Assembly (NCBI GenBank): GCA_043805855.1
Contig: JAZDHP010000019.1
Location: 1 to 21,378 of the forward strand
From: Candidatus Micrarchaeota archaeon
GTDB taxonomy: Archaea > Micrarchaeota > Micrarchaeia > Norongarragalinales > UBA8480
Direction: 5' to 3'
DNA: 21,378 nt
Shown here: positions 13,303 to 15,197 of the stretch, piece by piece
Layout of the letters: each line of letters begins with the position of its first letter
Position numbering within the stretch: the stretch's first letter is position 1
Translations under genes and position numbers: made by a program
The notes under the pieces: generated by a model
Database searches by the model: none
Told to the model about the DNA's origin: nothing
Seen by the model: the letters and a program-made list of their open reading frames with translations, nothing else

Positions 13303-13330
13303 CGCTAATAATTTTATAAAAAATAAAAAG

Positions 13331-13586
13331 TGGGCCTACCCGGATTTTCGTTATCGGAAAAGTTTTCTTTTCCCAAGGCTTTTTTCTTTACAAAGAAAAA
13401 AGGCTTATCGAACCGGGGATCTTTCCCACGTCAAGGGAACATCTTTGGCTTCAGCTTTTAATTAAAAGCTATTAATTTACCAATGTCGAAAGGTGCTCGG
13501 CCAGAGGTCTTGAGGTTGACGCGAACGCATTCGCGTCGCAACTTTCCCCCTGCGGCCGTGAGCGGCCTTTTCTCGACTATAGGCCC
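13331..13586 (-). tRNA. tRNA-Val(GAC) with three introns (15/16, 22/23, 59/60)
   Basis: Exons 13586-13572, 13482-13477, 13443-13407 and 13344-13331 join to a 72-nt cloverleaf: GGGCCTA TA GTCG AGTGGTA AGAT G TTCCC TTGACGT GGGAA AGATC CCCGG TTCGATT CCGGG TAGGCCC A. Each junction has a 4-bp central helix with 3-nt bulges (GTCG/CGAC, TGGT/GCCA, TTCG/CGAA). Anticodon at 13432-13430; no encoded CCA. Confidence 0.9.
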
Positions 13587-13609: not shown

Positions 13610-14266
13610 TTACTTTTTTATATCTAACATTGGAAGCGTGCCAGTCTTAATCCAACCATTATATCGGTCTAGATTTCTTGGATTATTGCTTCCTATTAAT
13701 TCAAACCATTTTTTAGTGCATGCTATTCCACTAATTCCGACATCTCCGCTTGAATCATACGCAGGTAATCCAACTTCTCTAAGCATTATTTTAAGCTGTT
13801 TTCTCAATGGAGTGCTTTCACTAGATATTAGTACTAATGGTCGTCTATATTGTTCGGATTTACGTGCAGACATTGATCCATCTGTATCGAAAAGTCCCCT
13901 AATTACATTAAAGCGTTTCTCTAAGGGTAATTTCATGATCCATTTGGGAATTTCTATTTGTCCTTTTTTACCAACTGGAAAGTCTAAACTTGTTAATAGT
14001 TCTGCAAATTTTTTGTTGTTAATTACTGCATTTATTGTGTTTGTATGTTTGTCTTTATAGAAATACGCGTGTACGCCGAATCTTTTTAAAATCGGGTTTA
14101 TAAATTGAGTGAGGTATTCTAAATCTCTTGTTGCGTTTCCACTTATAAAAATTCGAAAATAATATCTATTGTTTGGTTTTTTGAATCTAACAATGCAACC
14201 GTCGCCCATCAAAACGCCAAAGAATTCGAGAAATTCGTCGCTTGTTGTTTCTATTTCGTTTAGCAC
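13610..14266 (-). CDS. Free-standing two-motif LAGLIDADG homing endonuclease-like protein
   Basis: EFFGVLMGDGC and NVIRGLFDTDGS, both keeping the catalytic Asp. No intein splicing motifs. GTG start. Confidence 0.88.
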   Translation of the reverse strand: MLNEIETTSDEFLEFFGVLMGDGCIVRFKKPNNRYYFRIFISGNATRDLEYLTQFINPILKRFGVHAYFYKDKHTNTINAVINNKKFAELLTSLDFPVGKKGQIEIPKWIMKLPLEKRFNVIRGLFDTDGSMSARKSEQYRRPLVLISSESTPLRKQLKIMLREVGLPAYDSSGDVGISGIACTKKWFELIGSNNPRNLDRYNGWIKTGTLPMLDIKK

Positions 14267-14330: not shown

Positions 14331-14400
14331 AGTTTCTTTTTCCAAAGTTTCTTTTCTTCCACTGAAAGGCTTCTTTTCTTTGCGAAAGAAAAGAAGGGTT
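14331..14400 (-). repeat. Intergenic copy of the hairpin element found in both 59/60 tRNA introns
   Basis: Minus strand AACCCTTCTTTTCTTT-CGC-AAAGAAAAGAAGCCTT...TTTGGAAAAAGAAACT versus intron AAGCCTTTTTTCTTT-NN-AAAGAAAAAAGCCTTGGGAAAA. Confidence 0.7.
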
Positions 14401-14403
14401 TCA

Positions 14404-14538
14404 TGGACTCACCGGGATGTTCGAGCTTTTGAGAATTTCTTTTTTCCCAAGGCTTTTTTCTTTTGAAAGAAAAAAGGCTTATCGAACCCGGAGTCGCCCC
14501 CACGCCAAGGGGGTATGTTACCGTTACACCATGAGCCC
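14404..14538 (-). tRNA. tRNA-Ala(GGC) with a 63-nt intron at 59/60
   Basis: Exons 14538-14481 and 14417-14404 give GGGCTCA TG GTGT AACGGTA ACAT A CCCCC TTGGCGT GGGGG CGACT CCGGG TTCGATT CCCGG TGAGTCC A. G3:U70 and A73 alanine identity elements present. Full BHB: T-stem, TTCG/CGAA, bulges ATA and CAT, AGC/GCT. Confidence 0.93.
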
Positions 14539-14592
14539 ATTTTCGTGAAATTATTTGGGCGGCTAGATAATTATAATCCCTTTCTTGGTGGT

Positions 14593-14976
14593 TTATTTTA
14601 TGAATTCTACGTTTGGGCGGTTTTCAAAAGCTGGGTCGCCAGTTAGGAAACTTGCGTTCAGTTCAAGCGCCTTTTGGTATCCGATTGCGTCTGTGTAGGA
14701 TATGTCAAATCTTTGTTTCTTGAGTTTTAAGCGTAGGCGCATTGCTTGTTTTAATTCCGATTCAGTTGTTCTTGTTAAGTACTGTGCAAATCTTTCAAAG
14801 TAATTATCTGCATTTTCTTCGGTGGTTTCCCGTAGAAGTATGTAGTATAGCTCGGCTAGCATGAATTCTGTTGTGTGCAATGAAGTTGCTTCGTTTAATA
14901 CTTCTAGGTATTTTTTATTGCCCTTTATGTACTCTATCACTGCGTATGTGTCGACTACGTATTTCGTTGAAATCAT
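14593..14976 (-). CDS. vapC: PIN-domain toxin, VapC family
   Basis: Likely start 14976 (ATGA overlap with antitoxin stop). YVVDTYAVIE, LAELYY, ISYTDA, FLTGDPAF acidic PIN tetrad. Confidence 0.88.
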   Translation of the reverse strand: MISTKYVVDTYAVIEYIKGNKKYLEVLNEATSLHTTEFMLAELYYILLRETTEENADNYFERFAQYLTRTTESELKQAMRLRLKLKKQRFDISYTDAIGYQKALELNASFLTGDPAFENRPNVEFIK

Positions 14977-15197
14977 TCTTTCCATCCCTCTTGAGCTTCC
15001 TTCTTTAATTCAAGTGTGCTGCGTTTTGACTTAAAAGTTCCAAACAAGTCGCGAAGTTCTAATACGGGGCGTATGTTCACATGAAGTTGCATACTTTCTC
15101 GTAAATTTAAATCATCGGCTGTTTTCTTTGGAATAATAATCCCCCATGAATTACCGATCCTCTTTGGCGTAACGTTGACCTCTTCCATTTCACTCAC
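14973..15197 (-). CDS. vapB: AbrB/MazE-type antitoxin, VapB
   Basis: KRIGNSWGIIIPK AbrB motif, LFG..K C-terminal pattern; directly upstream of and overlapping the PIN gene. Confidence 0.85.
   Translation of the reverse strand: MSEMEEVNVTPKRIGNSWGIIIPKKTADDLNLRESMQLHVNIRPVLELRDLFGTFKSKRSTLELKKEAQEGWKE

Follow-up and report, generated by a model that had tools for sequence, protein, structure and literature searches.

The locus at 13331..13586 on the (-) strand of the window (the whole stretch of DNA analysed, 21,378 nt, from a Candidatus Micrarchaeota MAG of a groundwater archaeon population) is very probably a working tRNA-Val(GAC) gene, and apparently the only one of its genome, interrupted by three bulge-helix-bulge introns at tRNA positions 15/16, 22/23 and 59/60. 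The phenomenon itself is already documented in archaea, and the Val(GAC) gene is a further example of it; what it adds is a well-polarised case in which three introns appear to have been gained recently, and in which intron families can be recognised and variation is visible between strains. The observation from which the analysis started, an original prediction made from the sequence and its open reading frames, is confirmed and its interpretation is supported: the coordinates and lengths that it gave for the exons and introns all proved exact on the (-) strand (13586-13331).

The gene is 256 nt long, is composed of four exons and three introns, and does not encode the CCA end. Exon 1 (13586-13572, 15 nt) carries the 5′ strand of the acceptor stem, positions 8-9, the 5′ strand of the D-stem, A14 and G15. 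It is followed by intron 1 (13571-13483, 89 nt, at 15/16), an intron of the group that we call family A, which has the central helix GUCG/CGAC together with a 5-bp intron-side helix and which contains a hairpin-forming block of 38 nt (13548-13511) that measures 6 nt in other family-A copies. Exon 2 (13482-13477) is a micro-exon made up, as had been noticed at the outset, of the six nucleotides TGGTAA only; it extends from the G18 G19 region of the D-loop to position 22. Intron 2 (13476-13444, 33 nt, at 22/23; central helix UGGU/GCCA) separates it from exon 3 (13443-13407, 37 nt), which encompasses the 3′ strand of the D-stem, the anticodon arm with GAC, the variable loop, the 5′ strand of the T-stem and the T-loop up to position 59. 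Intron 3 (13406-13345, 62 nt, at 59/60), a member of family B, consists of a T-run/A-run hairpin and a second small hairpin, and its central helix UUCG/CGAA is flanked by the T stem. Exon 4 (13344-13331, 14 nt) supplies position 60, the 3′ strands of the T-stem and of the acceptor stem, and the discriminator A. With lengths of 89, 33 and 62 nt, the introns account for the 184 of 256 nt that had been reported as intronic. Cutting after the second base of each 3-nt bulge had been said to give an exact 72-nt cloverleaf, and ARAGORN does call the joined exons a 72-nt tRNA-Val(gac) with anticodon GAC (cloverleaf score 30/31).

About 30 nt upstream of position 1 there is an A/T-rich, TATA-like box (13614..13623, (-) strand) that overlaps the end of an upstream ORF and is a putative promoter element; it is also found upstream of the uninterrupted Val(GAC) gene of a genome from the same genus (G002). 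Immediately 3′ of the discriminator, runs of T5 and T6 (13312..13330, (-) strand) form a putative archaeal oligo-T terminator. Between the neighbouring tRNA-Ala gene and tRNA-Val lies a free-standing 218-aa ORF with a LAGLIDADG_3 domain (13610-14266, (-) strand; E = 6.9e-12), in a stretch that aligns with G002, whose Val(GAC) gene has no introns, and a 130-aa PIN-domain ORF (14593-14985, (-) strand; E = 4.7e-11) is located upstream of tRNA-Ala.

Comparison with uninterrupted orthologues

The decisive evidence on the nature of the locus is comparative, and lies in the match between the predicted spliced product and uninterrupted orthologues. When 40 relatives were searched for the exon-3 segment (a 39-nt part), eight of them matched, of which three are congeneric and the remaining five are spread over three other families, at exon 3 identities of 90-100%; the other 32, which gave no match to this 39-nt part, are uninformative either way. 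In each of the eight, ARAGORN calls Val(gac) as an uninterrupted 72-nt gene. These genes differ from the predicted product at 1, 2 and 2 of 72 positions within the genus and at 8, 9, 9, 11 and 11 positions in the three other families, so that removal of the introns restores a canonical tRNA that is identical to its orthologues at 61-71 of 72 positions. Moreover, the predicted 16-nt splice junction occurs as contiguous DNA in the congeners.

Within the genus, the exons are identical at 71/72 positions to G001 and at 70/72 to G002. The two differences found in G002 and in G003 constitute a compensating pair, since they affect both sides of acceptor pair 5:67, which is C-G in the studied gene and in G001 but T-A in G002 and G003, and the two halves of which are located in exon 1 and exon 4. 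The locus is syntenic in G002: positions 14649-13572 of the window align with that genome at 72% identity over 1,101 columns, the alignment crosses the upstream tRNA-Ala gene and an ORF and ends exactly at 13572, the last base of exon 1, and the gene found there is uninterrupted. The contrast between exons that are identical at 70-71 of 72 positions and flanks that are only 72% identical indicates that the exons have been under selection after the insertions. Since all three introns are absent from all eight relatives, three gains are more parsimonious than repeated triple losses, and the introns were thus presumably gained within the genus-level lineage. Losses do occur in the group, as can be concluded from the 59/60 intron of tRNA-Ala(GGC), which is patchy among the relatives (gene lengths of 73-74 nt in some and of 93-117 nt in others).

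A check for another Val(GAC) gene had been proposed along with the original prediction, and none was found in the 92%-complete assembly (1.03 Mb): exon probes derived from the eight orthologues match only the studied locus, and of 24 hairpins resembling a GAC anticodon arm it is the only one with a tRNA context. This single-copy result applies to the assembled part of the genome, about 8% being unassembled. Genes for Val(TAC) and Val(CAC) are present separately.

The expectation that standard annotation would overlook the gene was borne out with both tools employed. ARAGORN did not call Val(GAC) on the 256-nt precursor, on the window, or on the genome with intron mode, and the Rfam/Infernal tRNA model did not report it either, the window being without any Rfam match at the gathering threshold and the genome without an RF00005 match at E <= 1 at the Val(GAC) locus. 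Only 5 loci of this 92%-complete genome pass the Rfam tRNA threshold; five relatives have 11, 17, 21, 25 and 30 tRNA matches at E <= 0.001, all but one of which are above threshold, and the text of PMC3239211 gives 43 as the number of tRNA genes in ARMAN-2. As neither ARAGORN nor the Rfam tRNA model sees the apparently single Val(GAC) gene or most of the other tRNA genes, the tRNA complement reported by automatic annotation would be grossly incomplete even though the genome is 92% complete.

Splice motifs and alternative readings of the locus

All three introns follow one and the same helix register, in which the central helix joins four bases of the exon with four of the intron, the former ending 2 nt short of the 5′ cut and the latter 2 nt short of the 3′ cut. 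The helices GUCG/CGAC, UGGU/GCCA and UUCG/CGAA leave 3-nt bulges to be cut after the second base, giving an exact 3-4-3 arrangement at three of three junctions, and each intron possesses the bulge-helix-bulge core of two 3-nt bulges and a 4-bp helix. The strict hBHBh' form, with flanking helices on both sides, is not seen at any of them; the motifs are of the relaxed hBH or HBh' type instead, each having one strong flanking helix (consecutive flanking pairs on the exon side and intron side being 0 and 5 for intron 1, 5 and 2 for intron 2, and 5 and 0 for intron 3). The exon-side helix of intron 2 arises through pairing of the end of intron 1 with the start of exon 3. The boundary of intron 2 can slide over three A's without altering the product, and the bulge rule fixes it at 22/23.

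A 4-bp helix in this register is found in 2.3% of the 76,806 position pairs of the region, and a helix plus flank in 0.22%. When the introns were shuffled, the helix formed in 3.4%, 6.3% and 2.2% of the trials for introns 1, 2 and 3, respectively, and all three helices together in none of 20,000 shuffles. The full precursor is predicted to form the central helices with pair probabilities of 0.88-1.0 and to have a minimum free energy of -97.4 kcal/mol (z = -5.62), a value that was reached by none of 200 shuffled sequences, and the predicted fold retains the acceptor, anticodon and T stems. The cloverleaf obtained after splicing, on the other hand, is weak and non-specific evidence when considered alone. 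A blind enumeration of 170 candidate introns and 27,865 combinations resulted in 21 ARAGORN-positive solutions, from which we conclude that this test alone is too permissive. The top cloverleaf score is common to six solutions, the originally predicted one included, which use the same three sites within 2 nt.

One could thus argue for a different splice pattern, with other boundaries or with only two introns: ARAGORN accepts all 21 combinations, the six top-scoring ones differ by 1-2 nt at introns 1 and 2, and the product is unchanged wherever among the three A's intron 2 is bounded. The uninterrupted orthologue sequence is, however, reproduced only by the predicted pattern, and since the 6-nt exon is flanked on both sides by non-tRNA sequence, no two-intron pattern should be able to reproduce it, which makes this alternative extremely unlikely. 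An assembly artefact, in which repeats would have been joined chimerically, could be suspected from the location of the locus in a MAG and from the repetitive nature of intron 3. The same junctions are nevertheless covered by contigs that were assembled independently, from four runs belonging to two studies, including a 167-nt contig that is identical on either side of an indel in intron 1 and a 1,552-nt contig that spans exon 4 to exon 1, and we regard such an artefact as next to impossible.

Another possibility is that the locus is a pseudogene, that is, a Val(GAC) gene killed by the insertion of three small hairpin elements, in which case GUY codons would be read by a different Val tRNA or by a copy located in the 8% of the genome that is unassembled. 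Introns 1 and 3 indeed belong to repeated, hairpin-rich families behaving like small mobile elements, and the assembly is only 92% complete. This reading is, however, very improbable given that the exons are intact and, with their compensating pair, far better conserved than the flanks, that all three insertions are in exact bulge-helix-bulge register, that diverged strains retain the exons and the intron ends, and that the assembly yielded no other Val(GAC); in addition, most tRNA genes of the genome are likewise interrupted and cannot all be dead. The T6 run within the intron 3 hairpin (window 13395-13400, (-) strand) is no shorter than the T-runs that follow the gene, and archaeal RNA polymerase could terminate there without reaching exon 4. 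The gene might then be expressed in two pieces, with exon 4 transcribed separately and joined in trans, and split tRNAs joined via the same motif have been described in other archaea in the text of PMC3239211. No TATA-like box was seen between the T-run and exon 4, however, and the same hairpin family is present in 12 of 19 inspected introns, in many tRNA genes, so that read-through must be routine; the single 256-nt transcript also folds the motif of intron 3 with the T stem. Two-piece expression is accordingly rated as highly unlikely.

Splicing enzymes and a proposed pathway

According to the original prediction, a tRNA with three such introns would need a broad-specificity splicing endonuclease. 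This holds, since all three motifs are relaxed, and typing of EndA, as had been recommended, revealed a single frame in the genome, of the epsilon2 (ARMAN-2) type. The 388-aa ORF, with Pfam matches to the N-terminal and catalytic domains, has the form expected of this type, a single polypeptide of ~390 aa with three units, and aligns end-to-end with the 395-aa chain of the ARMAN-2 epsilon2 enzyme in PDB 4fz2 (residues 9-388 to 10-387, E = 9.1e-131). Of the functional residues listed in the text of PMC3488258, catalytic Tyr236/His251/Lys282, RNA-binding Arg275/Trp384 and specificity-loop Lys161 are identical (6/6, counted manually on the 4fz2 alignment). The nearest EndA genes among named genomes are those of Candidatus Micrarchaeota MAGs. 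The ARMAN-2 protein is described in the text of PMC3239211 and PMC3488258 as a homodimer with broad substrate specificity that cuts strict as well as relaxed motifs at non-canonical sites in vitro, and by analogy with this homologue the EndA studied here probably has a similarly broad specificity. The RtcB ligase is present too, so that an endonuclease of the type suited to relaxed motifs and a ligase are found in the same genome. In the RtcB gene (G000:C59:12806-15532 (-)), the regions that match profile positions 1-50 and 45-426 belong to a single open frame of 960 aa but are separated by ~1.4 kb, a spacing that points to an intein or a different large insertion in frame.

In the pathway that we propose, folding of the 256-nt precursor would place a 3-4-3 bulge-helix-bulge at each exon-intron boundary, the single epsilon2-type EndA would cut both bulges of each motif, and RtcB would join the exons into the 72-nt tRNA, to which CCA would be added afterwards. 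Cutting of both introns 1 and 2 before any ligation would entail loss of the 6-nt exon, since after cleavage at both of its ends nothing but four pairs to an excised intron would retain it, and cutting and ligation would for this reason have to alternate. When intron 1 is removed, the predicted probability of the central helix of intron 2 drops from 0.95-0.99 to 0.67-0.80, and the 3′ bulge of intron 1 is, by thermodynamic prediction, fully unpaired only after removal of intron 2. The use that the intron 2 helix makes of the 3′ end of intron 1, together with the opening of this bulge, would favour the removal of intron 2 before intron 1, and modelling suggests that this is the order of splicing. 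The splicing of intron 3 appears from the same folding predictions to be largely independent.

Intron families, other interrupted tRNA genes and known systems

Two of the three introns have relatives elsewhere. In family A, intron 1 shows a match at both ends to the canonical 37/38 intron (60 nt) of tRNA-Gln(CTG) on contig C45 and at its start to the 15/16 intron (55 nt) of tRNA-Val(TAC) on C22, and a 57-nt copy is found at 15/16 of Val(CAC) on a metagenome contig of another organism. The copies have a core in common and vary in their last few bases, which pair with the host exon. The single contig obtained by a metagenome pattern scan was rejected as a strain allele of Val(GAC), being the Val(CAC) gene of another organism. 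An orphan family-A core lies in an intergenic region behind a TATA-like box (G000:C29:47723-47773 (+), locus L096); this copy gave no Rfam match at E <= 1 and no tRNA solution. Family B is characterized by the T-run/A-run hairpin followed by a short purine-rich motif. Over its first 39 nt, intron 3 shares 92-95% identity with copies located in the adjacent tRNA-Ala(GGC) gene and on C17, C53 and C8, and the 12 inspected introns that cluster with intron 3 by similarity are inserted at D-loop, T-stem and T-loop sites. Families A and B both comprise similar introns in different genes and at different positions, as is typical of transposed intron families; for intron 2, no paralogue was found in the similarity search.

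Genome-wide, there are 72 loci with a T-run/A-run hairpin (9-nt arms, at most one mismatch), three of them inside long ORFs and 60 near tRNA seeds, the latter count being partly circular since some seeds were defined by the hairpin. A role of the family-B hairpin as a general terminator was rejected, as only 3 of the 72 hairpins are located within 60 nt of an ORF stop. Such hairpins occur just downstream of the EndA gene (C10:28990-29012) and of tRNA-Ala (window 14371-14395).

Metagenome contigs revealed variation between strains. A contig without any difference on either side (X1, record 2) has the 38 nt of intron 1 replaced by 6, which generates a 57-nt form of the intron. In two more diverged contigs (X5 and X2), 74 nt of the interior of intron 1 are replaced by two different 19-nt stretches; X5 (~91% identity) extends across introns 2 and 3 as well. 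Both contigs retain the sites and ends of the introns, while the interior of intron 1 varies, and an intron-free form of the gene was not seen among the metagenome contigs examined (DNA from four runs). It could be that protein-spliced introns are at present spreading actively in this Micrarchaeota lineage: families A and B would be colonising any tRNA gene that offers a few exon bases able to pair with the 3′ tail of the intron, Val(GAC) would have acquired its three introns once the lineage had separated from its congeners, family A would move among Val isoacceptors with a common 5′ exon, and intron interiors (57-nt versus 89-nt alleles) would still be changing between co-occurring strains. 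We give this scenario an even chance of being correct. If true, the lineage would provide a natural system for studying the mechanism of archaeal tRNA-intron transposition, as well as a test of whether a 6-nt exon imposes an obligatory splicing order. An intron-gain case in a second archaeal lineage with an independently evolved broad-specificity endonuclease would also add comparative material on intron movement.

The Val(GAC) gene does not stand alone, as most tRNA genes of the genome are interrupted likewise. Our census included 51 seed regions on both strands and strict 3-4-3 motifs with introns of 10-260 nt; it is seed-biased and noisy, and represents a lower bound from which no true per-gene intron average can be taken. 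The triple-intron stage was omitted for 14 strand-searches with a high-scoring solution of at most two introns and for 2 others. Eight genes were resolved by their match to uninterrupted references, namely Val(GAC) and Gln(CTG) with three introns, Val(TAC) and Glu(TTC) with two, and Ala(GGC), His, Lys(CTT) and Thr(GGT) with one. By cloverleaf score alone, Tyr and Gly(TCC) would have two introns, Val(CAC) one and Thr(TGT) none. Phe(GAA) was mis-solved (66/75 to its reference), and Ile, Ser, Leu and other loci are also without a solution. A 155-nt 'intron' upstream of Val(CAC) was rejected as a spurious call on reading its junctions, and the call of a second intron in Ala(GGC) was spurious as well. 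Since only 5 loci exceed the Rfam threshold and the other orthologue-validated genes are interrupted too, splicing must be obligatory in this genome.

The tRNA-Gln(CTG) gene (G000:C45:18161-18400 (-), locus L026) harbors one intron of ~60 nt in the D-loop, one of ~60 nt at 37/38 and one of ~62 nt at 59/60; the second belongs to family A and the first and third to family B, and the spliced form of the gene is identical at 67/73 positions to the gene of G017. The tRNA-Ala(GGC) gene (window 14403-14539, (-) strand) has one 63-nt family-B intron at 59/60 (14480-14418); it is mis-called by ARAGORN as a 92-nt gene (14448-14539), and its spliced form is identical at 72/74 positions to the uninterrupted G001 gene.

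The closest known system is ARMAN-2 (Candidatus Micrarchaeum acidiphilum; Fujishima et al. 2011, PMC3239211; Hirata et al. 2012, PMC3488258), which has the same phylum label and enzyme type as the studied genome. According to the text of PMC3239211, it also has non-canonical introns, including 59/60, with relaxed motifs, as in pre-tRNA-Cys, and its tRNA-Pro(GGG), in which introns at 53/54 and 59/60 leave a 6-nt exon, is a precedent for the micro-exon of Val(GAC). The same text, taken apart from Supplementary Table S2, describes 56% of the genes as disrupted and at most two introns per gene, in contrast to the three found here in Val(GAC) and Gln(CTG), and the congeners of the studied genome differ from it in that their Val(GAC) orthologues are uninterrupted. 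In the literature covered, the main text of PMC3239211 included and its supplementary tRNA list lying outside, we did not find three-intron genes or intron families described for Micrarchaeota. The review PMC4090602, which summarises Sugahara 2007/2008 and Fujishima 2010, reports for Thermoproteales large-scale intron transposition, intron families at varied positions and genes with as many as three introns, the motif being kept at each junction as in Val(GAC). The studied genome, however, is from DPANN and not from Thermoproteota, and its enzyme is the independently evolved epsilon2 rather than alpha2beta2.

Asgard archaea (10.64898/2026.10.13.758758) resemble the studied genome in that the majority of their tRNA genes are interrupted, that standard annotation overlooks many of the introns, and that introns are inferred to have been gained repeatedly. 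Asgard genes contain up to five intervening sequences with a median of ~22 nt, whereas the introns described here are mostly ~60 nt long and fall into recognisable families; the available text of that preprint does not mention DPANN or Micrarchaeota. The original prediction had referred to triple-intron tRNAs as known but rare in archaea. The former is correct, but 'rare' is dated given the Asgard genes and given that multi-intron genes are common in the studied genome, where tRNA-Gln(CTG) has three introns as well. Strain-level variation of tRNA introns in metagenome data has also been described, in the text of PMC3293823, for a natural population of Caldiarchaeum subterraneum; there it is the presence or absence of introns that varies, and here the interior of a single intron (57-nt versus 89-nt forms and swapped interiors).

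Finally, two further RNA-related features were detected elsewhere in the genome. A C/D-box sRNA-like match to sR2 (G000:C53:13328-13383 (-); 629-684 of locus L033) adjoins the tRNA-His locus, with 35.1 bits (E = 6.6e-5) against a gathering score of 42. The 16S rRNA gene (G000:C5:62463-64899 (-)) is 2,437 nt long compared with a model of 1,478 positions, corresponding to insertions of ~1 kb.
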